Source: an uncultured Gammaproteobacteria bacterium
Lineage (GTDB): Bacteria; Patescibacteriota; Microgenomatia; Levybacterales; UBA12049
Direction of reading: 5' to 3'
NCBI GenBank assembly: GCA_964503265.1
Contig: CAZCYO010000003.1
Coordinates: forward strand, 23,740-87,739
DNA: 64,000 nt
Positions 4,928-40,970 of the stretch are shown here, piece by piece (within the stretch, counting starts at the first letter, position 1; each line of letters begins with the position of its first letter). Position numbers and translations under genes: made by a program. Under the pieces are notes generated by a model, which did no database searches, was not told the origin of the DNA, and saw only the letters and a list, made by a program, of their open reading frames with translations.

Positions 4928-5014
4928 AGGAAGGATCGCATAGTGGTCTAGTGCGCACGCTTGGAAAGCGTGTGTCGCCGCAAGGTGACCGGGGGTTCGA
5001 ATCCCCCTCCTTCC
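4928..5014 (+). tRNA. tRNA-Ser (anticodon GGA)
   Basis: GGAAGGATCGCATAGTGGTCTAGTGCG-CACGC-TTGGAAA-GCGTG-variable arm-CGGGGG-TTCGAAT-CCCCC-TCCTTCC-G. All arms pair. Confidence 0.8.
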
Positions 5015-5138
5015 GCCGCGTCGGAGCTCAGCTTAACCGTTTCGTCAGCCTGTTGGCTGATTGCACTTTTCAGTTGGTTCCTCCTCTTTAACTTAGCGTA
5101 GCAAAGTTAGAAAGAACAACTAAAACAACAAAAAGACT

Positions 5139-7439: not shown

Positions 7440-7442
7440 AAG

Positions 7443-7527
7443 CGGAGGGTACAGGATTCGGACCTGCGGACAGTTATTCACCGTCACGGCTTAGCAAGCC
7501 GCTCCATTACCACTCTGGCAACCCTCC
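7443..7527 (-). tRNA. tRNA-Ser (anticodon GCU)
   Basis: Reverse complement GGAGGGT-TG-CCAGAGTGGTAATGG...GCGGC-TTGCTAA-GCCGT-long variable arm-GCAGG-TCCGAAT-CCTGT-ACCCTCC-G. Acceptor and anticodon stems pair. The D-arm fold is less clear. Confidence 0.65.
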
Positions 7528-7587: not shown

Positions 7588-8280
7588 ATGCATCTTTTCG
7601 ATTTGCTGTTTCCGAAAAAGTGTGTGAGTTGTGGTTCGTTTGGGTCATATATTTGTAGCAATTGCTTTGCCAAAATATCGTTTGAAGTGGAGTCTATTTG
7701 TGTAGAGTGTAACAGAGCTGCAATCGATGGGATAACCCATCCTGGATGTAAAAAACGATATTCACTTAACGGCGTATTATCGAGCGTGAAATATAATGGT
7801 GTGATGAAAAAAGCACTGTATAGATTTAAATACGCACCATATATAAAACAAATCGAGACAGTGTTAATTGAACTTTTTTATGAAGGACTCATCCAAAAAG
7901 AATTGTTTCATACGTTGCGCCTGAAGAACGCTGTATTTGTCCCTATTCCGCTTCATCCAGAAAAACTAAAAAGTCGAGGATATAACCAGGCAGAAATTTT
8001 AGCAAATGGTATCGCAAAAGAGATGGGAATGGAGAGTAAAAACGTATTATATCGACAGAAGAAAACGCAGTCGTCATTTACGTTGACCCGCGAACAAAGG
8101 CAGAAGAATATCGATGAGGCATTTGTTATAAAAACAGATGTGGTGCTGACTCCCGATATGACGATACTGTTAGTTGATGATATCGTGACGACAGGTGCGA
8201 CGCTTAGTGAAGCGGCAAAACTACTTAAAAAGAATGGCGTAAAAAGTGTGTGGGGAGTGACGCTGGCTCATGGGAAGTAA
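7588..8280 (+). CDS. comFC: ComF family protein (ComFC-type double zinc ribbon plus phosphoribosyltransferase domain)
   Basis: N-terminal CVSCGS...CSNC...CVECN..GCKK zinc ribbons. C-terminal PRTase signature ILLVDDIVTTGATLSEA. Confidence 0.8.
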   Translation: MHLFDLLFPKKCVSCGSFGSYICSNCFAKISFEVESICVECNRAAIDGITHPGCKKRYSLNGVLSSVKYNGVMKKALYRFKYAPYIKQIETVLIELFYEGLIQKELFHTLRLKNAVFVPIPLHPEKLKSRGYNQAEILANGIAKEMGMESKNVLYRQKKTQSSFTLTREQRQKNIDEAFVIKTDVVLTPDMTILLVDDIVTTGATLSEAAKLLKKNGVKSVWGVTLAHGK

Positions 8281-9726
8281 TTATTTCCCCTGGCATTCTG
8301 TTCTCACAACAGGAATAGTATCTTTGTGTATGGCTTTGGCTAGCTTGCATGTTTTTATGATATTTATTCGTACATCGGTATTTGATGGATTTAATTTTTT
8401 GGCTTTTTGGAACTCTGTGAGTGCTTTTTCTGGCTCAAAATATACGAAGTGAATAAGACCTAATTGATTATGTTTTTCTGCACTTTCGGGAAGAAGATGA
8501 AGCTCTGTCCAGAGGGTAGGAATGTAGTTTTTCCAACTCATAAGTGCTTTAGGTGTTATAAAGGCGTAGTAGCCAAGTAAGCAAACTATACAAGATAGTC
8601 CGAGTACCTGGAAGTACCGGGCAATATATCTTCGGGGAGTACTCTTTACTAGGTGGGAAAACACTGTAGAGATCGTCAGGCTTGCTCCAAAAGATGCGAT
8701 AACTCCGTATCTTCCCCATAGCGGTTGGTTTTGGAATGCAATGCCCACAAGTGGCATGAGGCTTAGGAAAAACCAGATAATTCCAAATCCGATAAATGAT
8801 CGCCTGCGATATAGCCATACGCCAATCACAAAAAACAACAGAATAATTAGACTGTAGACAATCATATCTGGCTGAAATGGCGAAAGAGTAGGGTTTTGTG
8901 ATGTGGCAAGGGTTAGCTTTTTTTGAATAGCTTGAGCTGTGGGTTCTGAGGGGGGAAGGGGGAAAAAAGACGTCGTAATATATGATCCAGCGCCTTCAAT
9001 AATGATTGCGAACTTCTCTAAGATATGACTAAAAAAATCTCCACGATTACTCATATGCACAATTCCTTCGCGAACGATTAAATAGAAAAATGGGATAGAA
9101 ATAATAGAAGCGCCAACTCGTTTCGATATTTTTTCACTATGAAAATGAATATAGATGAAAAAAAGAAGAGGAAGACACAGTGTTATTTCGTACGTAAAGT
9201 ATGCAAGGGAAGAAAAAAAAAGTGTAAGAGAGAGAAATACTTGTGTCTTTTTTTCAAGTAATAGTTGAAAACAAAAAAATGATATAAATGCGAAAAGAAC
9301 ACCCAGTGTGTCAAAGCTAGCAGTGAGATTGGCGACATTATCGACATGCAGAGGCAGAAGTCCGTATATGAGTGCAGTCATGGCTGCTAAGAGATACGTA
9401 TCTGTAAGTTTTTTGGTGATGAAATAAACCAGAATAATACACAGAATATAGATGGATAAGGCTTGCATGTGATAAAGAAATAAATTGGTATGGAAGAGTT
9501 GGTAGCTTATAACGTATGCCAGTGCCCGCACCGGACGATACACGCCCTCATGAGTGTATGGCGCGTCACCCATGAGAAGTTGCGGAATATGGTGAACATC
9601 ATGAATCGCGTCCCACGTAAACAGAAAATCAATTTCATCATACAGAAAGGGAGTGTTAAAAAGAGGGAGGAATATAACGATCACAAAAGCACAAATCGCA
9701 ATAAGCGTGAGGATATCTTTCTTCAT
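8281..9726 (-). CDS. GT-C-type membrane glycosyltransferase-like protein (PMT/TMTC-like) with C-terminal TPR
   Basis: 481 aa, polytopic. N-terminal loop with a DE motif (FLYDEIDFLF) typical of family 39/83-like GT-C enzymes. C-terminal TPR-like LTEFQKAKKLNPSNTDVRINI. One of three paralogous GT-C/TPR proteins in the window. Confidence 0.55.
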   Translation of the reverse strand: MKKDILTLIAICAFVIVIFLPLFNTPFLYDEIDFLFTWDAIHDVHHIPQLLMGDAPYTHEGVYRPVRALAYVISYQLFHTNLFLYHMQALSIYILCIILVYFITKKLTDTYLLAAMTALIYGLLPLHVDNVANLTASFDTLGVLFAFISFFCFQLLLEKKTQVFLSLTLFFSSLAYFTYEITLCLPLLFFIYIHFHSEKISKRVGASIISIPFFYLIVREGIVHMSNRGDFFSHILEKFAIIIEGAGSYITTSFFPLPPSEPTAQAIQKKLTLATSQNPTLSPFQPDMIVYSLIILLFFVIGVWLYRRRSFIGFGIIWFFLSLMPLVGIAFQNQPLWGRYGVIASFGASLTISTVFSHLVKSTPRRYIARYFQVLGLSCIVCLLGYYAFITPKALMSWKNYIPTLWTELHLLPESAEKHNQLGLIHFVYFEPEKALTEFQKAKKLNPSNTDVRINIIKTCKLAKAIHKDTIPVVRTECQGK

Positions 9727-9785
9727 TCTACTATATTACTAGGAAAATGATTGTGGTGAGAAGGGAGACATACTTCGTCATAAAA

Positions 9786-9813
9786 AAGCCGCCGGGGTTA
9801 GCCGGCGGCGGGG
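9786..9813 (-). terminator. GC-rich rho-independent terminator for the minus-strand GC-rich cassette
   Basis: Plus strand AAAAAAGCCGCCGG-GGTTAG-CCGGCGGC. On the minus strand an 8-bp GC stem is followed by TTTTTT. Confidence 0.7.
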
Positions 9814-9845
9814 TAGACACATGTGAGGCTGTGTCTCGTGCCTTT

Positions 9846-10169
9846 TTACGGTTGTGAAGGTGGTGGTTGGACCCATGAGACTCGTACGATTTCGTCGAGT
9901 GGGAACTCGCTCGTGTACGAGACGAAGGGAGACAACCGACCTTCTAGAGACGAGATGACGAGTAATCCTGTTTCTGCTTCAATGACTTTTCCGACGTGGA
10001 TCACGTCGTCTTCGAGATTGAAGTAGAGAGCGATCGCTCCTGGAGCTGGTGTTTCCAGTTCTTCAAGTTCGCCACGTAAGAATAACCCCATGACGTGGTT
10101 ATAGTAGTATGTGGATCCGAGAGCGTAGGAAGCAGCGTCTTTATCTGCTGATGCAGATCCGTCAGTCAT
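9846..10169 (-). CDS. hypothetical protein (GC-rich cassette A, gene 3)
   Basis: 107-aa ORF. Local GC is clearly higher than the ~40% background. Confidence 0.4.
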   Translation of the reverse strand: MTDGSASADKDAASYALGSTYYYNHVMGLFLRGELEELETPAPGAIALYFNLEDDVIHVGKVIEAETGLLVISSLEGRLSPFVSYTSEFPLDEIVRVSWVQPPPSQP

Positions 10170-10294
10170 CTTGAACCTCCTGGTGTTATGAGCGCTTCGG
10201 GAACGGGATATCGCGAAGATCAGCGACCTCGCCCTTTAGGGCAGACTGCGTGATGCGGCGAACCACACTGTAGTGGTAGCCCTTCATCTGCTCT

Positions 10295-10549
10295 TCAACG
10301 ACTCCCACGCATTGTCAGGCGATACTGCCTGGAGGGCGCAGGGTTTGAAGACGTGGGGTAGTCATTGAATGGGAGTTCTTGTTGCCATGACTGCAGGTAG
10401 CCTTTCCGAACCAAACTCTCAAGCTCACTAGTCGCAAAGCGGCCGCGAATCTTCCAGTTAATGGTTCCTTCGGTGAAAGTGCCGCTATTGAAAGCAGCGT
10501 CTTGACATGCTCGGAGGACTTCTTGTTCGCCTGGTGTAAGATCATCCAT
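10295..10549 (-). CDS. hypothetical small protein with LuxR/sigma-70-region-4-like N-terminal helix-turn-helix (cassette A, gene 2)
   Basis: 84 aa. LTPGEQEVLRACQDAA resembles the LTxRExEVL HTH start of LuxR/FixJ and sigma region 4. GC-rich. Confidence 0.35.
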   Translation of the reverse strand: MDDLTPGEQEVLRACQDAAFNSGTFTEGTINWKIRGRFATSELESLVRKGYLQSWQQELPFNDYPTSSNPAPSRQYRLTMRGSR

Positions 10550-10565
10550 CGACGCCTCCTTCGTA

Positions 10566-10910
10566 CTATTGTTCGAGCAGCTTCACGGTGGAGTCTGCCC
10601 GAGCCATGATTTCTGCGTGGAAGGCTTTCGCCTCCTGCGCCGCATCGTGTTCGAGAAGAGCATCCAGCCAGAGGGGGACTGTAGCGTAGAGAATCTCACT
10701 CACTGAGAAGGGCATACGAAGTGTGGTTACATGATCGTCAATTGATTGCATCATGTGCAAGACGAAGCCGCCCACAATTCGTCCCTGTCCGGCGAGCTCT
10801 GCGAAGCGTGGGTAGAGATCATCTACCAGTTTCGTAGCAGAGATGACGCTGGTTAAGCGCCTGATCATCTCCTCCCGATCCGGAAGGATTACACGAATGT
10901 CACTTGGCAT
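10566..10910 (-). CDS. hypothetical protein (cassette A, gene 1)
   Basis: I chose the start at MPSDIRV because a GAAGGAGA Shine-Dalgarno lies 7 nt upstream. GC-rich. Confidence 0.4.
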   Translation of the reverse strand: MPSDIRVILPDREEMIRRLTSVISATKLVDDLYPRFAELAGQGRIVGGFVLHMMQSIDDHVTTLRMPFSVSEILYATVPLWLDALLEHDAAQEAKAFHAEIMARADSTVKLLEQ

Positions 10911-10957
10911 AGGGTATTTCTCCTTCTCTGATTCAGGCTTATGCGTATCCAAATGGA

Positions 10958-11046
10958 TAGCATCTTAGGTAAGAATGAATTCCTGCCCAAAATGCTATCC
11001 ACAAAGGATTTAATTATTTCCGCAAACTGTAAAAGTGCAAAAAAAA
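10958..11046 (-). promoter_or_regulatory. upstream control module of cassette A: 10-bp inverted repeat TGGATAGCAT...ATGCTATCCA plus conserved TTTGCGGAAAT and TTTTGCAC-TTTACA motifs
   Basis: Same architecture and near-identical motifs as the region upstream of cassette B (13533-13625). Confidence 0.5.
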
Positions 11047-11154
11047 GATCTATAGTACAACAAATACGCATATGTATTGAAGTACTCTAGTTATAGCGGG
11101 ATTATAGCATTATGAAAGACGCACGGTCAAACTATAGGGCTAAAGATTGCATGT

Positions 11155-11391
11155 TTATATGAAATGTTTATTTCTGAAGGCGAAGCCTGAGTTAGTTTTT
11201 AAGTAATCTTCAAATAAAACTGCTTTTTCTTTGGACTGAAAAGCAGCATAGAAAATTAAAATGAAAGGTCGTAAATTTTTTGTTGAAGCTACAGAACCTT
11301 CTGTATGAGCTTTTATGCGGTTCTTGAGATTAGAAGAATATCCATGATAAAACGTTTTATCTTTAAGTTGGAGTATGTATACATAATACAT
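11155..11391 (-). CDS. GIY-YIG nuclease family small protein
   Basis: 78 aa. MYYVYILQLKDKTFYHGYSSNLKNRIKAH is a canonical GIY-YIG module (YVYIL..YhG.T.NL..R...H). Confidence 0.8.
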   Translation of the reverse strand: MYYVYILQLKDKTFYHGYSSNLKNRIKAHTEGSVASTKNLRPFILIFYAAFQSKEKAVLFEDYLKTNSGFAFRNKHFI

Positions 11392-11399
11392 ATTCTCAG

Positions 11400-11442
11400 T
11401 GTATCAAAATGAAAAATGCCCCACTTCGTCCGCCAGTTGGCG
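11400..11442 (-). terminator. rho-independent terminator downstream of ssrA (nested hairpin plus U-run)
   Basis: Minus strand: GCCCC-UAACGUA-GUCCGCC-AACU-GGCGGAC-GAAGU-GGGGC-AUUUUUCAUUUU. Confidence 0.6.
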
Positions 11443-11540
11443 GACTACGTTAGGGGCACCCTTCGCTACTATTTTCAAGCCATTTTTTTAGGAGTGTGGC
11501 CTGCCACTCCGTAGCTCATCCCGTTAGGGTATGAGCGAAG

Positions 11541-11970
11541 GGTGGAGATGTCCGGGAGCGATCCGGAGTCCGAAATATATTTTTAAAAACATCTACAAGC
11601 GTAGTCACAATTTATAGTGTCGTCTGAAACGTGTTCGAGTGACGGAATTTTTCAGACCTAGATCTCTTAATACCACGAAAGTCGAAATCAGTCTCTCTCG
11701 CTGTTTTCCTAACTGTTTTTAGGTCGTTACTTCCACGTTAGGGAGGAAGTAGGACTGTTCAAAGAGCTCGGGTCTTAAGCAGCAAGTGCGAAAGATTGAG
11801 GTGCGAATGCACCGTCAAAAGCGGATTGAACTCCGTCAGCTGCCTTGAGGGCGAATTGACGGACGCTGCGCATTGAGTCAGCATTTATTTTTTGATAATG
11901 TTTTACGACAACTTATCAATGTCGGCTTGCAGTTTTTAAAGAACGTAAATCGTCGAATCAAATCATCCCC
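11541..11970 (-). ncRNA. ssrA: tmRNA (SsrA), ~430 nt
   Basis: The 5' end, GGGGATGATTTGATTCGACGATTTACG, is near-identical to the canonical tmRNA 5' end GGGGCUGAUUCUGGAUUCGACGGGAUUUGCG. The 3' end reads GGAC-TCCGG-ATCGCTC-CCGGA-CATCTCC-A-CC, and the acceptor GGGGATG/CATCTCC includes the G3:U70 alanine identity pair. An internal reading frame ends ...GCA CTT GCT GCT TAA (…FALAA*), the typical tag terminus. The gene lies immediately downstream of smpB. Confidence 0.8.
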
Positions 11971-12146
11971 AAGCAAAAATCAACTATGATTGTTATTTGC
12001 GAACATTGATTTTTCAAATTCGAATATCGAAATCCTAAACTCGAAACTCCACTTCGTTCAAGAACTTCGCGGAGCAGGCTTTTTTGCTTGCCACTCCGTA
12101 GCTTTAGCGAAGGGTGGTTTCGTATTTCGTGCTTTGGTATTCGGAT

Positions 12147-12590
12147 TTAATATTTTCCCTCAGTATATGCATCTTCTATCTCGCGTGCGATATCTCTATT
12201 TTTTATGGCTTCTTTCTTTTCAAAGGCTTTTTTCGATTTCGCGATACCGAGTTCTGCTTTAATGAGGAGACGTGTAGTATACACCGATATAGGCACGATT
12301 GTCAAGTTTGACCCGTCCATTTTAGCCTTGAGAGAGAGAATTTGTTTCTTATGAAGTAGCAGTTTTCGAGTCCGTTTCGGGTCGTAATTTTCCTGTCTGG
12401 AATTAACATACGGAAAGATACTCGCATTCATTAAATACGCTTCATTTCCACGAATTCTCGCAAAGCTTCCCGTCAAATCTGCATGACCATTACGGATAGA
12501 TTTTACCTCAGCCCCTGTGAGCATAATCCCAGCCTCAAAGGTTTCAAGGATTTGATAGTCGTAGGTTGCCTTTTTATTCACAATTTTCAT
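12147..12590 (-). CDS. smpB: SsrA-binding protein SmpB
   Basis: KKATYDYQILETFEAGIMLTGAEVKSIRNG...LLLHKKQI matches the SmpB signature. Confidence 0.9.
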   Translation of the reverse strand: MKIVNKKATYDYQILETFEAGIMLTGAEVKSIRNGHADLTGSFARIRGNEAYLMNASIFPYVNSRQENYDPKRTRKLLLHKKQILSLKAKMDGSNLTIVPISVYTTRLLIKAELGIAKSKKAFEKKEAIKNRDIAREIEDAYTEGKY

Positions 12591-12684
12591 GAGAGTATGA
12601 TACCTGAAAAAAGGCTAAGAGCAAAGAGGACAGCTAATGGCATAAGGCTCGCTTCTCTTTATGGCTTATGGGTATACATGAGAA

Positions 12685-12720
12685 GACCCCGCTCCGGCGA
12701 ATGCCGAGGCGGGGTCTAGG
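12685..12720 (-). terminator. GC-rich hairpin at the 3' end of cassette B (weak terminator)
   Basis: GACCCCGCTCCGG-CGAATG-CCGAGGCGGGGTC. There is no clean U-run, so the call is weak. Confidence 0.4.
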
Positions 12721-12751
12721 GTGCGCGTTACTTGCGGAAAGTATTTAGCGA

Positions 12752-12910
12752 CTTAGGAAGAAACAAACGAGCCCTGCGAGCTCGAATGGGATGGATAACA
12801 CTACGAATGTTGATCCTCCAACGAGGAGGAAAAGAAACGAGAAGAGAATGCCTGCACAGACGCACATTGCGCCGGCAGCGGTCATGCTAGATTTCCAGGC
12901 CTTCATCGAT
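12752..12910 (-). CDS. possible small membrane protein (53 aa), cassette B
   Basis: GC-rich short ORF MKAWKSSMTAAGAMCVCAGILFSFLF... This is my own translation of the minus strand. It is below the 60-aa cutoff of the ORF track. Confidence 0.25.
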
Positions 12911-32624: not shown

Positions 32625-32800
32625 GTGTTGGAAAAGTATAGGAAATCACGATGAAATTTCGTGACTGTGCCGCAACTGTGAAAGTCAGAAAACTATACTT
32701 AAGTCGTTTCATTCCCGAGCAGGAGTATTCAAGTATAGTAATCTTGTAATCCTTCTTAGGAATTGTTTTTTCTAAAGAAGGATTTTTTGTAAGAATTCTC
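32625..32800 (+). promoter_or_regulatory. cobalamin riboswitch-like leader (compact variant) with intrinsic terminator, upstream of pduO-type gene
   Basis: GGAAATCACGATGAAATTTCGTGACTGTGCCGCAACTGTGAAAGTCAGAAAAC contains the CCGCaACUGU core and an AGUCAG B12-box-like element. Followed by the terminator TCCTTCTTAG...CTAAAGAAGGATTTTTT (32757-32797). Confidence 0.5.
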
Positions 32801-32840: not shown

Positions 32841-33410
32841 ATGCCAATTTATACAAAAACAGGAGATCGTGGCCAAACCTCACTTATGGGTGGAGTTCGC
32901 ACGTCAAAATCAAGCTTACGTGTCGAGACATACGGTACTGTCGATGAACTGAATAGTATTGTTGGCGTGGTTATTGCACATTTACCCGCTAAAAACACAC
33001 CATTTGAGGAAGCCCTTGAAGCGATTCAGCATGATTTACTTGAAATCGGTGCAAGCCTGGCAAATCCACAATCAGCTCCATTAACATATTTATTTGATCG
33101 AGTAACAGAGTTTGAAAAAATGATTGATGAATTTACGACAAATCTTCCTGAACTAACTCATTTTATTTTGCCAGGTGGAGGCGTGACAGGTGCATCGCTT
33201 CATCACGCACGTACGATTTGTCGCCGACTTGAACGAGTGCTTGTACGACTTCAAGACAAAGAGCCTATTGATGCAACGATTGTGATGTATGTTAATAGGT
33301 TATCTGACCTCTTTTTCACTATGGCGCGATTTACGAATCATCTGACAGGAGAAAAAGAAACAGTATGGATCTCACGAAAACAATCTATTACTAGTAAAAA
33401 AAGTAAATAA
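32841..33410 (+). CDS. PduO-type ATP:cob(I)alamin adenosyltransferase
   Basis: MPIYTKTGDRGQTSLMGG...RVETYGTVDELNS matches the PduO/MMAB N-terminal signature. Confidence 0.85.
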   Translation: MPIYTKTGDRGQTSLMGGVRTSKSSLRVETYGTVDELNSIVGVVIAHLPAKNTPFEEALEAIQHDLLEIGASLANPQSAPLTYLFDRVTEFEKMIDEFTTNLPELTHFILPGGGVTGASLHHARTICRRLERVLVRLQDKEPIDATIVMYVNRLSDLFFTMARFTNHLTGEKETVWISRKQSITSKKSK

Positions 33411-33414
33411 CCTG

Positions 33415-33550
33415 GTGAATCTGGTGTAATTCCAGAACTGTGCCGCAACTGTGAAGTCCCGATCTCTATCGGGAATAAGTCAGATCCCGATGTGAATCTT
33501 CCGAGCAGAAGTAGATTTTTCTACACTCCTTGGAAGCAAGGAGTTTTTTT
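33415..33550 (+). promoter_or_regulatory. cobalamin riboswitch (core GGUG.AA.UCC...GCCGCAACUGU...AGUCAG) with terminator/SD-sequestering hairpin
   Basis: CTGGTGAATCTGGTGTAATTCCAGAACTGTGCCGCAACTGTGAAGTCCCGATCTCTATCGGGAATAAGTCAGATCCCG. Expression platform CTCCTTG-GAAG-CAAGGAG + TTTTTTT ends 1 nt before the ATG, and the AAGGAG Shine-Dalgarno lies inside the hairpin. Confidence 0.6.
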
Positions 33551-34912
33551 ATGCCTGTAGAAGTATTACAACAATTATCCGAAGCAGAACGAGTAAGTCC
33601 ATCAAAGATAAAAACAGATGAGGCACATGATTTTCTTGGAGAAAAAAAGCAGCAACCATATCTTCAAAAACAAGATATGTATGAATCTGAAGTTATAAAG
33701 GTGCAACCAAAGACACTTAAAGAATATGTTGCGTTTTTTGATAAAGAAATGCGGTCATCGGAGCTACCCTGGTATACGTTAGATAATAAAGTTGGATTTA
33801 GTATGAAATCACAAATGCAATTACTTGATATGAAAGATACGTCTTCTGTGGATAGATGGGCTGTTCAAACCAAACAAGATTTACTTGGGTTTTGTCTCGA
33901 ATATTTATCAGATAAGTTAGTCTATCCGTATAAATATGAAGAGGTAACATTACCAAATGGCGAAGCATCTCTTCGTGATACAAAATATGGTAAAGACATT
34001 CTTGAAACGACATCAGCTAAAGAACGAAATGGAAGTGTACTTGATGCACTTAAAGAAGTAAAAACGTTTTTTGTTAGGGAGGCTGGAGATACAGAAAAGC
34101 CATCAGGGAAAGCTGAGCAATCTATTGCTGTTATGTGTAGTCCTCTTGGACCAAGTGGGCTTGAAACAGATAATGGAGAATCGATTCATTACCCTGATTC
34201 GTATTGGTTTATTTTTGAAAGAAAAGGAAAGGAAATTCGGGGTGTTACGATACGAACGGATTTTACGATAACAGAATGTCGTGAAGCTTTGCGTATGTTA
34301 ACAGGAAAAGTTCTTCCCGAAGGTTCACTTCTTGAAGATTATGCGAGAGCTTTGACATGTATCCCTGGCGAAAAACAAAAAACCGCATTTGATATTGTTG
34401 ATACATTACGACAAGCTCGGGCACATGTGACAGAAAATACGAAAACTGTATTTGGTGATAAAAAATGGGACGAAGTTATATCCGACATGAAACAAGGGCA
34501 ATCACTCTATGAATTTAACGATAAGACTAAAGATGTCATAAAAGAATTTGAAGAGTATGTTACGACGAACCAGCTTTCACAGTTAGACATTCAAAAAGCA
34601 CTTGCTGCCACATTCTTACGACTTTCAAAGCTGTTTATCCTGTCAGAAGAAGATCAGGAATCGCTTACTGAAAATGGCGAGTTATTTGAGGAAATTCTTA
34701 CTCGAGTAGCATCAATTCCTGGATGTGCGGGTGGAGGCGGTGGAGTGACCGCTGTTGAATCTGCGGGTGGAATTCGGTTAGGAATGTTACAAGAAAAAAC
34801 ACTTAAATGTAAAGAATGCCCGTTATGTAAAGAGAAAGATATTGTTGCTACCATTTCAAATGGAAAAATAACCTGCCCAAAATGTGGCAAGTCTGCTCCG
34901 TATGATTGCTAG
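33551..34912 (+). CDS. hypothetical protein with C-terminal CxxC...CxxC zinc ribbon; riboswitch-controlled
   Basis: I chose the start at MPVEVL, after the riboswitch terminator. The C-terminus is GGGGG linker then CKECPLC...CPKCGK. No other motif recognised. Confidence 0.45.
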   Translation: MPVEVLQQLSEAERVSPSKIKTDEAHDFLGEKKQQPYLQKQDMYESEVIKVQPKTLKEYVAFFDKEMRSSELPWYTLDNKVGFSMKSQMQLLDMKDTSSVDRWAVQTKQDLLGFCLEYLSDKLVYPYKYEEVTLPNGEASLRDTKYGKDILETTSAKERNGSVLDALKEVKTFFVREAGDTEKPSGKAEQSIAVMCSPLGPSGLETDNGESIHYPDSYWFIFERKGKEIRGVTIRTDFTITECREALRMLTGKVLPEGSLLEDYARALTCIPGEKQKTAFDIVDTLRQARAHVTENTKTVFGDKKWDEVISDMKQGQSLYEFNDKTKDVIKEFEEYVTTNQLSQLDIQKALAATFLRLSKLFILSEEDQESLTENGELFEEILTRVASIPGCAGGGGGVTAVESAGGIRLGMLQEKTLKCKECPLCKEKDIVATISNGKITCPKCGKSAPYDC

Positions 34913-37857: not shown

Positions 37858-37901
37858 TTCCTTCTTTTTCGTTCTTTTTTTTGCTACAATCAAACTCATT
37901 C

Positions 37902-37975
37902 GGGTGTGTAGCTCAGTGGTAGAGCGCGACTCTTATAAAGTCGATGTCCTTGGTCCGATCCCAAGCACACCCACC
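37902..37975 (+). tRNA. tRNA-Ile (anticodon UAU by hand folding)
   Basis: GGGTGTG-TA-GCTC-AGTGGTA-GAGC-G-CGACT-CTTATAA-AGTCG-ATGTC-CTTGG-TCCGATC-CCAAG-CACACCC-A-CC. All stems are Watson-Crick. Positions 34-36 read TAT. Confidence 0.65.
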
Positions 37976-37980
37976 TCATT

Positions 37981-38733
37981 ATGAAAAAATCTTCAGATCA
38001 CGTTTTACTTGCTGTTGGTGCACATCCAGACGATATGGACTTTGGGGCATCTGGGACAATTGCAAAATTTGCTTCAGAAGGATGGGACGTTTACTATGTT
38101 TTGTGCACTGATGGATCGCGAGGTTCTGATGAACCACAGATGACACATGCGAAACTTGCCGAGATTCGACGTCGTGAACAACTCAAAGCCGGAAAAATTC
38201 TTGGCGTGAAAGACATTTTCTTTTTAGATCACCCAGATACACAACTTGAAGCAAATCTTGAGTTAAAAGAGGAGATCGTACGGATTATTCGTCGTATAAA
38301 ACCTAACATCGTGATTACGATGGATCCAACATTTTATTTTTCTAAAGAACCTCTTTTTTCAGGATTTCATTTTATCAATCATACTGATCATCGAGCTGCG
38401 GCTCTTGCGACGATGGATGCAGTTTTCCCACTTTCTCGTGATCGGCTTATTTTCCCAGAACACGAAAAAGAAGGACTTGGACTCCATGCAGTTGAAGAAT
38501 TATGGATGACGTGTTTTGAGGAGAAACGGCATACTGTTGATATAACTGACTTTCTTCCTAAAAAACTTGAAGCAATTGCAGCGCATAAAAGTCAGTATGA
38601 TGATTTCCCTTCAATCAAAGAGAGAATCACTGCTCGTGCCGCAGAATTTGCCAAAGAAGAGCACTATCACTTTGCTGAGAATTTTACTCGACTAGTGTTG
38701 CCTCCGCATAGAAATCGTTTTCAGAAAAAGTAA
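37981..38733 (+). CDS. PIG-L/LmbE family deacetylase
   Basis: LAVGAHPDDMDFGASGT...YVLCTDG...HTDH motifs. Confidence 0.75.
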   Translation: MKKSSDHVLLAVGAHPDDMDFGASGTIAKFASEGWDVYYVLCTDGSRGSDEPQMTHAKLAEIRRREQLKAGKILGVKDIFFLDHPDTQLEANLELKEEIVRIIRRIKPNIVITMDPTFYFSKEPLFSGFHFINHTDHRAAALATMDAVFPLSRDRLIFPEHEKEGLGLHAVEELWMTCFEEKRHTVDITDFLPKKLEAIAAHKSQYDDFPSIKERITARAAEFAKEEHYHFAENFTRLVLPPHRNRFQKK

Positions 38734-40067: not shown

Positions 40068-40970
40068 TTACAGTTCTGACAGGTGACTTGTGTCTTTTGC
40101 TCGGTCTTTTACAAATTCCAGATAGCGTTCAGTTGTTGAAATTCTTTTATGTCCTAAAATCTTTGAAAGAAGGACGAGTGAAACTCCATGTTTTAAATGA
40201 TGTGCGACGAATGTATGTCGAAGATCGTTTACTTTTGCATTTTCGATTTCAGCAAGTCTAAAATATCGTTCAATTGCGGTTCTAATATTTCGAACGAGGA
40301 ACGGTTTGCCTGATTTGGTAACGAAAATATGATTATCTGTTACTTGTGGACGACCTTTGAGATAGCGGCTAAGCGCTTCTTTAGCTGAACGATTAAGTGG
40401 AACGACTCGTTCTTCATGTTTTTCCATTGGGCGAATTCGAAGCGTTTCACCTTCGATATCTGTTAAACGAAGTTCGGCGAGTTCTCCAATTCTAATTCCT
40501 GTTTGAAGAAGTAGTTCGATAATAGCAAACATTCTTGGATCATTTCGTGCAGCGTCTCTAAGTGCTCGATATTCTGTCGGTTTAAGGATTCGTGGAGGAG
40601 CTAGTTCGTATTTTGGATGAGAAACAAGAAGCGATGGATCGTCAGTAATAATTTCATTTACTTTTAGATAACGATAAAAAGTACGTGTTGAGTTCAATTT
40701 ACGAGAAACTGACTTAGGAGTATATCCTTTATCTGCCATTGTTGCTAAAAAGGCTTGAAGATCTTCCGTTTTAACATCATGAACATTATGCTTTTCAAGC
40801 TCAGAAAGAAAAGAACTTAACTGCTCTATATCTTTTCCATATGCTAGAATAGTAGCACTGGAGTGCTTCTTGCTTTTTAAAAAGTCAATAAATTTTGCGT
40901 GCGCGTCTCGAATTTTGATCGGTTCTGACATACTATATCCCATAATATCAATAAATTCATGATTCGTCAA
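40068..40970 (-). CDS. tyrosine recombinase XerC/XerD family
   Basis: N-terminal SAM-like core-binding domain. C-terminal R...HTFVAHHL...GH..ISTTERYL with catalytic Tyr. Confidence 0.8.
   Translation of the reverse strand: MTNHEFIDIMGYSMSEPIKIRDAHAKFIDFLKSKKHSSATILAYGKDIEQLSSFLSELEKHNVHDVKTEDLQAFLATMADKGYTPKSVSRKLNSTRTFYRYLKVNEIITDDPSLLVSHPKYELAPPRILKPTEYRALRDAARNDPRMFAIIELLLQTGIRIGELAELRLTDIEGETLRIRPMEKHEERVVPLNRSAKEALSRYLKGRPQVTDNHIFVTKSGKPFLVRNIRTAIERYFRLAEIENAKVNDLRHTFVAHHLKHGVSLVLLSKILGHKRISTTERYLEFVKDRAKDTSHLSEL

Follow-up and report, generated by a model that had tools for sequence, protein, structure and literature searches.

At positions 37902-37975 of the window, by which we mean the whole 64-kb stretch of DNA analysed here, lies a tRNA gene of 74 bases on the + strand, GGGTGTGTAGCTCAGTGGTAGAGCGCGACTCTTATAAAGTCGATGTCCTTGGTCCGATCCCAAGCACACCCACC, with a gene for a large ATPase just upstream and a gene for a tyrosine recombinase farther downstream. 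The features needed for what follows, those of the tRNA first and those of its surroundings after, are these.

37902-37975, + strand: tRNA-Ile(UAU) gene (ARAGORN; Rfam RF00005; cloverleaf MFE; kinship to Levybacteria-like genes; family covariation)
Acceptor stem of the tRNA(UAU): GGGTGTG/CACACCC, 7 bp
D-arm of the tRNA(UAU): GCTC-AGTGGTA-GAGC, 4-bp stem and 7-nt loop, with U12-A23
Anticodon arm of the tRNA(UAU): CGACT-CTTATAA-AGTCG, 5-bp stem, loop CUUAUAA
Variable loop of the tRNA(UAU): ATGTC, 5 nt
T-arm of the tRNA(UAU): CTTGG-TCCGATC-CCAAG, 5-bp stem, with C55
35470-37857, + strand: VirD4/TraG/DUF87-type ATPase gene, 795 aa (Pfam TrwB_AAD_bind, DUF87, T4SS-DNA_transf, TraG-D_C, DUF8128)
37882-37890, + strand: putative extended -10 element TGCTACAAT, 11 nt upstream of the tRNA 5' end in a 44-nt spacer (our own reading of the sequence)
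40068-40970, - strand: Xer-like tyrosine recombinase gene (Pfam Phage_integrase and SAM_1)

ARAGORN calls a tRNA-Ile with anticodon tat at coordinates identical to these, an isotype label that it reads off the anticodon only, and the Rfam tRNA model RF00005 scores the same 37902-37975 interval at 68.4 bits (E = 8e-13), above its gathering score of 29; this is the top Rfam tRNA score among the seven tRNAs of the window. The MFE fold is a complete cloverleaf of -25.8 kcal/mol (z = -2.59 relative to shuffles), and the centroid structure is the same. The 7-nt anticodon loop is uninterrupted, with U33 and A37 in place and no intron, and at the 3' end the A73 discriminator is followed by only the CC of CCA, most of the other window tRNAs likewise being without an encoded CCA. 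The initial annotation had folded the gene by hand into a clean cloverleaf with loop CUUAUAA and anticodon UAU, and ARAGORN, the Rfam score and the MFE fold agree with it; where it had looked ahead to a pseudogene or a shifted anticodon, what was found is the tat anticodon at the exact coordinates within a folded body. The element is thus confirmed as a real tRNA with a genuine UAU anticodon, neither a mis-fold nor a pseudogene. A lysidine-dependent tRNA-Ile2(CAU) identity is ruled out for it, the anticodon in the gene being TAT.

One detail that had gone unremarked is the T-loop TCCGATC, with C at position 55 against a near-universal U. Position 55 is normally U, the site of pseudouridine 55. 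The motif GGTCCGA (T54-C55-C56) occurs in three of the seven window tRNAs, namely the UAU tRNA (37955-37961), a tRNA-Arg(GCG) at 1144-1218 and a tRNA-Ser(GCU) at 7442-7527, and across the compared loci of the Candidate Phyla Radiation (CPR, Patescibacteria) C55 is found in 31 of 118 tRNA(UAU) genes and in seven other tRNAs (Gly-GCC, Val-UAC, Arg-CCU).

The ATPase gene ends 44 nt upstream of the tRNA and is its conserved synteny partner in Microgenomatia and Dojkabacteria: homologs occur in 38 of the compared loci (designated by L numbers) at 47-83% identity, and at least 21 of them lie on the same strand and end less than 400 nt upstream of a tRNA(UAU). The counterpart in L027 is 83% identical to the window ATPase. 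Across Microgenomatia the ATPase keeps 60-83% identity and almost always adjoins the tRNA(UAU), so that it looks like a core CPR gene and not a part of a conjugative element. On the other side, past a PIG-L gene and an S26-peptidase gene, the recombinase is the ortholog of genes of ~288 aa beside the tRNA(UAU) in related Microgenomatia, with 82-85% identity to those of L095, L046 and L033 and 46-74% in nine more loci, so that the block of ATPase, tRNA(UAU) and Xer-like recombinase is conserved across Microgenomatia. A different neighbourhood is seen in 26 other CPR loci, of Paceibacteria type or labelled Saccharibacteria, in which the tRNA(UAU) stands directly 3' of ftsH with ribosomal protein S1 upstream. 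In one of these settings, a MAG labelled Saccharibacteria, the FtsH upstream of the tRNA(UAU) has 1066 aa (L118 3790-6987, - strand), and an insertion resembling an intein seems to break up its AAA domain.

Neighbours that match the TraG/VirD4 and phage-integrase Pfam families might be taken as the coupling protein and integrase of an integrative element that brought along its own AUA decoder, and tRNA(UAU) genes matching the search pattern do occur on 52 IMG/VR contigs, with 5'-half remnants of the tRNA in a few loci suggestive of recombination at the gene. Such an auxiliary tRNA of a mobile element or phage is nevertheless very improbable here. The ATPase and recombinase are conserved, syntenic and chromosomal across Microgenomatia at 47-85% identity; the G+C content of ~40% runs through the whole window, the tRNA region included; none of these viral tRNA(UAU) genes exceeds 69% identity to the window tRNA, whereas its chromosomal relatives reach 92-95%; and in other CPR classes the tRNA(UAU) follows the core gene ftsH. 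A prophage or ICE origin was therefore rejected on synteny, composition and tRNA identity. The gene content of the window is likewise chromosomal (DnaG, RpoD, two class A PBPs, a class II RNR, GAPDH, GuaA, GuaB, PurA and tmRNA), and we take the tRNA(UAU) gene to be a chromosomal one that is vertically inherited. Extension of the flanks beyond the window yielded only short Logan contigs of run SRR12487046.

In the spacer between the ATPase gene and the tRNA, TGCTACAAT is a possible extended -10 promoter of the tRNA(UAU). A generic -35/-10 promoter scan returned no site at the window tRNA, and in other loci TATAAT-like hexamers cluster at -20 to -14 from the tRNA(UAU) start: such a hexamer lies within 60 nt of the tRNA in 72 of 117 loci, and 37 have the TGn-extended form. 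Immediately downstream, the ATG of the PIG-L deacetylase gene (37981) stands 6 nt past the 3' end of the tRNA (37976-37983), which leaves no space for an RBS outside the tRNA; the 5' end of the PIG-L mRNA may therefore be created by tRNA processing.

Elsewhere in the window, four of the seven tRNAs are tRNA-Ser (UGA, CGA, GGA, GCU), grouped with the tRNA-Arg(GCG) in the first 8 kb (164-253, 1144-1394, 4929-5017 and 7442-7527) and followed by the tmRNA (11540-11970, - strand). An AdoCbl-II riboswitch (32626-32703, + strand, 52.8 bits) lies between the gene for the class II, B12-dependent RNR and that for a PduO-type cobalamin adenosyltransferase, and a sub-threshold AdoCbl-like match (33388-33523, + strand, 36.7 bits, E = 0.001) precedes an unannotated ORF of 460 aa at 33530-34912.

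The tRNA(UAU) carries the isoleucine-type elements A73, A37, A38 and U12-A23, and differs from E. coli tRNA-Ile in having U4-A69 and A29-U41 where the latter has C4-G69 and C29-G41; U12-A23, A37 and A38 are also characteristic of the tRNA(UAU) family, and C4-G69 is present in 74 of its 110 distinct sequences among the matches listed, the window tRNA having U4-A69. Counted only over positions free of the search pattern, the identity of the window tRNA to the single CPR tRNA-Ile(GAU) compared, that of L017, is 77.5%, and the two have the same acceptor stem and D-arm. The family as a whole is nearer to Ile2-like CAU tRNAs (GGGCC...) than to Met-like ones in 93 of 110 sequences, with the opposite in 9 and ties in 8, and for the window tRNA, too, CPR Ile(GAU) and Ile2-like tRNAs are nearer than Met tRNAs.

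The codon that such a tRNA would read is in regular use. With 12.7 per 1000 codons, or 16% of those for isoleucine, AUA is common in the window; 27 of its 29 well-supported genes contain it, so a decoder for it is required, and by the scale of PMC12514573 such a frequency counts as 'high usage'. Across 31 orthologs of the ATPase gene, positions with an ATA codon (356 in all) are matched by ATT/ATC-Ile in 56% of cases, Val in 17%, Leu in 10% and Met in 4%, a substitution profile that is that of ATT and ATC and unlike that of ATG. Since ATA codons align as ATT and ATC do, we conclude that AUA is read as isoleucine. The suggestion that the gene bears on how this lineage decodes AUA is thereby strengthened, the codon being common in the window genes and aligning with isoleucine in the orthologs.

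The same profile largely refutes the idea that another amino acid, such as methionine, is loaded onto the tRNA, with AUA reassigned as in many mitochondria, or that the gene is an inactive pseudogene. In favour of such readings, C55 and a CCA that is not fully encoded are a little out of the ordinary, and the ARAGORN isotype comes from the anticodon alone. Against them stand the Ile-, Val- and Leu-like alignment of ATA, with only 4% Met, a tRNA body that resembles Ile(GAU) and Ile2 and not Met tRNAs, the need for an AUA decoder in 27 of 29 genes, the strong covariation and invariant A73 of the tRNA(UAU) family, and the fact that the missing encoded CCA is common to most window tRNAs. We regard either variant as scarcely credible.

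The members of that family were collected by searching one genome per GTDB species for a pattern that joins D-arm, CTTATAA loop and T-arm, and the family extends to at least 120 genomes; the search patterns favour tRNAs whose D-loop is short, whose anticodon loop has C32/A38 and whose T-arm is standard. Of the 120 matches listed nearly all are CPR; among the genome titles, 74 name CPR or Patescibacteria, 12 read 'bacterium', 31 read 'uncultured Gammaproteobacteria/Pseudomonadales' and 3 are non-CPR. The CPR names among them include Levy-, Roizman-, Gottesman-, Woese-, Dojka-, Berkel-, Magasanik-, Jorgensen-, Yanofsky- and Saccharibacteria, and others. The closest tRNA(UAU) sequences among these matches are those of L102 (95% identity) and L027 (92%), the latter like Levybacteria GW2011_GWA1_37_16. 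Together with the 83% identity of the ATPase to that of L027, this places the window in a Levybacteria-like member of Microgenomatia. In the 110 distinct sequences among the matches listed, 17 stem pairs outside the search pattern are canonical in 99.4% of cases, with up to six canonical pair types per stem position and A73 in 110 of 110. As each pair shows several canonical pair types, compensatory changes are frequent in the stems, and the pattern indicates that the family is under selection on structure. The initial annotation had called a UAU isoleucine tRNA rare in bacteria; for bacteria at large this agrees with PMC3575796 and with a 2026 preprint that still terms UAU tRNAs rare cases, but it does not carry over to the CPR lineage, where such a tRNA is the norm, in at least 120 species-level genomes.

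Several other features of the matches deserve mention. Fifteen of the 31 genomes titled 'uncultured Gammaproteobacteria/Pseudomonadales' carry a Microgenomatia-type ATPase beside the tRNA(UAU) (L005, L008, L014, L026, L033, L045, L049, L071, L082, L092, L098, L102, L104, L111 and L121). Because a CPR-type tRNA(UAU) there adjoins a Microgenomatia-type ATPase, the NCBI label 'uncultured Gammaproteobacteria' is almost certainly wrong for these 15 species-representative MAGs, which are binchicken TPA assemblies. The three non-CPR matches (L021, L040 and L100) are a Vicinamibacterales MAG and two Planctomycetes, one a Fimbriiglobus sp. and the other a Planctomycetaceae on a 2.3-Mb contig. Their tRNA(UAU) acceptor stems differ (CCTCCCG, CGGCCCG); UAU decoding may extend to these non-CPR bacteria as well. 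Finally, 5'-half remnants of the tRNA(UAU) that end at the anticodon (..CTTAT[A]) are present 10-40 nt upstream of the intact gene at L014 130-157 (- strand), L022 2356-2383 (+ strand) and L045 2800-2827 (- strand), with probable further examples in L041 and L033; these look like scars left at the anticodon loop by site-specific recombination or by replacement of the gene.

The separation of AUA (Ile) from AUG (Met) is the classic weak point of the genetic code, and TilS is regarded as essential and near-universal in bacteria. TilS (TIGR02432) is one of the GTDB bac120 markers. It has been found in 98.18% of bacterial genomes and called evolutionarily stable (PMC6063277). A different picture comes from the 95 complete Patescibacteria genomes of Table S2 of PMC13011429, which gives counts per amino acid and not anticodons, from ARAGORN, which names tRNAs by anticodon: expressed as (Ile, CAU) tRNA counts, 42 genomes have (1,3) and 32 have (2,2). 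Two or more Ile tRNAs and no more than two CAU tRNAs are counted in each of the 12 Microgenomatia and 7 Dojkabacteria, and Saccharimonadia, JAEDAM01 and Kazan have (1,3) or, in a minority, (2,3) (PMC13011429 Table S2). As the (1,3) and (2,2) counts are complementary, the second Ile tRNA would replace the third CAU tRNA. The (2,3) state occurs in 10 of the 95, 7 of them Saccharimonadia (PMC13011429 Table S2); in these genomes UAU and Ile2(CAU) could coexist, so that replacement would not be obligatory.

The layouts of individual loci fit this complementarity. A metagenome search with the same tRNA pattern and CAT as the anticodon yielded, among the matches listed, loci with three CAU tRNAs directly beside tilS-ftsH (L188, L214 and L259; also L275 and L206) and no UAU tRNA. 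The arrangement is confirmed by two long contigs, on which three CAU tRNAs accompany tilS, ftsH and murJ with no UAU tRNA within 10 kb. The spans of the clusters are as follows.

L188 5576-7493: CAU-tRNA/tilS cluster
L214 960-2863: CAU-tRNA/tilS cluster
L259 1815-4328: CAU-tRNA/tilS cluster
L296-L299 ~7900-12800: CAU-tRNA/tilS cluster

In Kazan-type loci the initiator, elongator Met and Ile2 CAU tRNAs all lie within ~2 kb of a tilS-ftsH(-murJ) operon. TilS in these loci is short, at ~310-330 aa, and the C-terminal Pfam domains usual for the enzyme are missing from it.

The Microgenomatia order is ATPase, tRNA(UAU), recombinase, two CAU tRNAs, a TrpRS-like gene (so labelled from its KMSKS motif alone) and ftsH (L088, L109, L114 and L019), and L003 has the same arrangement with ftsH past the locus end. 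In these loci a TilS HMM, built from the E. coli, G. kaustophilus and A. aeolicus sequences by way of PDB alignments, found no TilS, and none lies upstream of ftsH, the place it has in Kazan-type CPR. The SGGxDS motif and this HMM likewise found none in the window and 0.95 Mb of UAU-bearing loci, where ~1 match would be expected by chance, so that this second result is uninformative alone. ARAGORN and Rfam found no tRNA-Ile2(CAU) within the 64-kb window. Homologs of A. aeolicus TilS among the closest 120 matches are from Aquificota only, and a survey of CPR requires a CPR query. A search for IleRS by its HIGH and KMSK[SR] motifs in the window and 2.2 Mb of compared loci returned only LeuRS-like and TrpRS-like ORFs. 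As a test of positional orthology, the ORFs flanking the Ile2(CAU) gene of the tilS loci were compared with those flanking the UAU gene, and no homology was found between them; the UAU gene may stem from an Ile2(CAU) gene through a C-to-T change, or from an Ile(GAU) gene.

The proposal that a UAU tRNA is tied to loss of TilS therefore gains ground at the level of the lineage, with three CAU tRNAs beside tilS-ftsH in the CPR loci that have tilS, and a UAU tRNA plus two CAU tRNAs without tilS in the neighbourhood in Microgenomatia. As locus layouts and tRNA counts are complementary, the simplest reading is that CPR occupy one of two states, tilS with Ile2(CAU) or else Ile(UAU), and that the lineage of the window would be in the second. 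In that lineage the tRNA(UAU) seems to have replaced the lysidine (TilS) system; from its relatives we infer that the source genome is without tilS and Ile2(CAU) and that the tRNA(UAU) would be its sole AUA decoder.

It could instead be that tilS and a tRNA-Ile2(CAU) are also encoded in the genome, the UAU tRNA serving as an extra reader of AUA. Bacteria with both systems have been described (PMC3575796), two Ile and three CAU tRNAs are counted in 10 of 95 complete Patescibacteria genomes, and our inspection of this genome was confined to the 64-kb window. Yet none of the 12 complete Microgenomatia has more than two CAU tRNAs, and L019, L033 and L046, whose ATPases are 82% identical to that of the window, have exactly two CAU tRNAs near the UAU tRNA, L019 also having ftsH without tilS. 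A weaker point is that the NCBI names of the short-TilS family, among its closest 120 matches, are candidate division Kazan and unspecified Patescibacteria, with no named Microgenomates. We consider such redundancy unlikely, and return to replacement of the lysidine system as the preferred reading.

A side observation concerns the CAU tRNAs of Microgenomatia. Their putative initiators (C1xA72, CGCGGGG...CCCCGCA) are only 69-70 nt long (L008 5873-5942, L019 4752-4821, L024 1792-1861, L033 3382-3450, and others), with an atypical D-arm, TAGTGTACAGTGCAC, and a T-loop such as GGCGCAACTCC that has no TTC. ARAGORN counts only one CAU tRNA in 4 complete Microgenomatia genomes, in which atypical initiator genes were perhaps missed.

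Taken together, the gene is very probably a functional AUA-decoding tRNA-Ile of Levybacteria-like Microgenomatia (Patescibacteria/CPR), standing in for tRNA-Ile2(CAU) and TilS. Its transcription would start at an extended -10 promoter of its own or come from read-through of the ATPase gene, RNase P would process the transcript, and, because the gene encodes CC only, its 3' end would be completed by a CCA-adding enzyme. The t6A37 modification is typical of tRNAs that read ANN codons and is probable here. Charging with isoleucine would depend on an IleRS that accepts U34, and U34 would then pair with the A of AUA. The Microgenomatia isoleucine set would consist of GAU and UAU tRNAs, with the CAU tRNAs restricted to the initiator and elongator Met; if there are only two CAU tRNAs and both are Met, TilS would be without a substrate and is therefore predicted to be absent. 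As to how AUG is avoided, the Mycoplasma mobile precedent suggests an unmodified U34 together with adaptations of the ribosome and IleRS.

With somewhat less confidence, we favour the broader view that TilS and tRNA-Ile2(CAU) have been lost in whole CPR classes, namely Microgenomatia, Dojkabacteria, WWE3, UBA1384, Doudnabacteria and parts of ABY1, Paceibacteria and Gracilibacteria, and that a UAU tRNA of ancient descent, lying in a conserved AUN-tRNA/ftsH neighbourhood, decodes AUA there, with Kazan, Saccharimonadia and JAEDAM01 keeping tilS and three CAU tRNAs. The single locus is an ordinary annotation that any standard pipeline could call; its value lies in the class-level pattern. If that pattern is true, a big part of the bacterial tree systematically lacks TilS, the enzyme cannot be called 'evolutionarily stable across bacteria', and a sizeable share of bacterial diversity, instead of some nine species, relies on UAU decoding. 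In CPR, which have atypical ribosomes to begin with, a separate means of keeping U34 off AUG would be required, and these bacteria would offer many independent natural experiments on the tolerance of IleRS and the ribosome for U34. Ideas for TilS-directed antibacterials or genetic-code engineering would not be applicable to these CPR. This kind of system is already known, and its lineage-wide scale in CPR is not mentioned in the literature searched: our literature search returned no work linking lysidine or tilS with Patescibacteria or the Candidate Phyla Radiation, and a search for TIGR02432 nothing relevant.

The known bacterial cases were assembled by Taniguchi et al. (2013; PMC3575796), who described nine bacterial species in three clades without tilS and with tRNA-Ile(TAT), inferred a 'transition state' with both systems for Lactobacillus casei, Cyanothece and Ferrimonas, and noted 371 unexplained tDNA-Ile(TAT) sequences in metagenomes. 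Many of the latter probably stem from CPR. Closest in kind is the tRNA-Ile2(UAU) of M. mobile, which likewise encodes UAU in the gene for AUA-Ile, in a reduced genome without the lysidine system as is predicted here, and where a U34-accepting IleRS and avoidance of AUG are similarly expected to be needed; there an unmodified UAU, a critical Arg865 of IleRS and a ribosome that rejects AUG have been shown biochemically (PMC3575796). M. mobile is however a single species of Tenericutes for which the biochemistry has been done, whereas the trait seen here in sequences spans whole CPR classes. Bifidobacterium and Neorickettsia parallel what is predicted for the CPR, in that whole clades have lost tilS and have a UAU tRNA; both have tRNA-Ile(UAU) and use a eukaryote-type IleRS, horizontally acquired (PMC3575796).

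With the canonical tRNA-Ile2(CAU) and TilS (lysidine, k2C34) the CPR tRNA shares a related body and the exclusive task of reading AUA as isoleucine, but its UAU is in the gene, modification of C34 is neither possible nor needed, and no tilS was found in the matching neighbourhood; Kazan-type CPR retain the canonical Ile2(CAU) system, with tilS beside ftsH and three CAU tRNAs. A laboratory parallel is the suppressor of a Bacillus subtilis tilS deletion, reportedly found by Fabret in 2011 to be tRNA-Ile1 changed from GAU to UAU. As in that suppressor (Kohrer 2014, PMC3919564), a tRNA-Ile(GAU)-type body with U34 would take over AUA without TilS, in keeping with the acceptor stem and D-arm that the window tRNA shares with a CPR tRNA-Ile(GAU). 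Unlike the suppressor, which arose in the laboratory at a fitness cost, the CPR tRNA(UAU) appears to be naturally fixed and anciently conserved. Outside the bacteria, eukaryotic tRNA-Ile(UAU) has a pseudoU-A-pseudoU anticodon and needs an intron for the pseudouridylation, and UAU tRNAs are also found in the archaea Nanoarchaeum and Korarchaeum, which are without TiaS. In all of these, as predicted for CPR, a U34 tRNA decodes AUA directly in place of a modified cytidine, although the CPR gene, unlike its eukaryotic counterpart, is intron-free and belongs to another domain with other synthetases.
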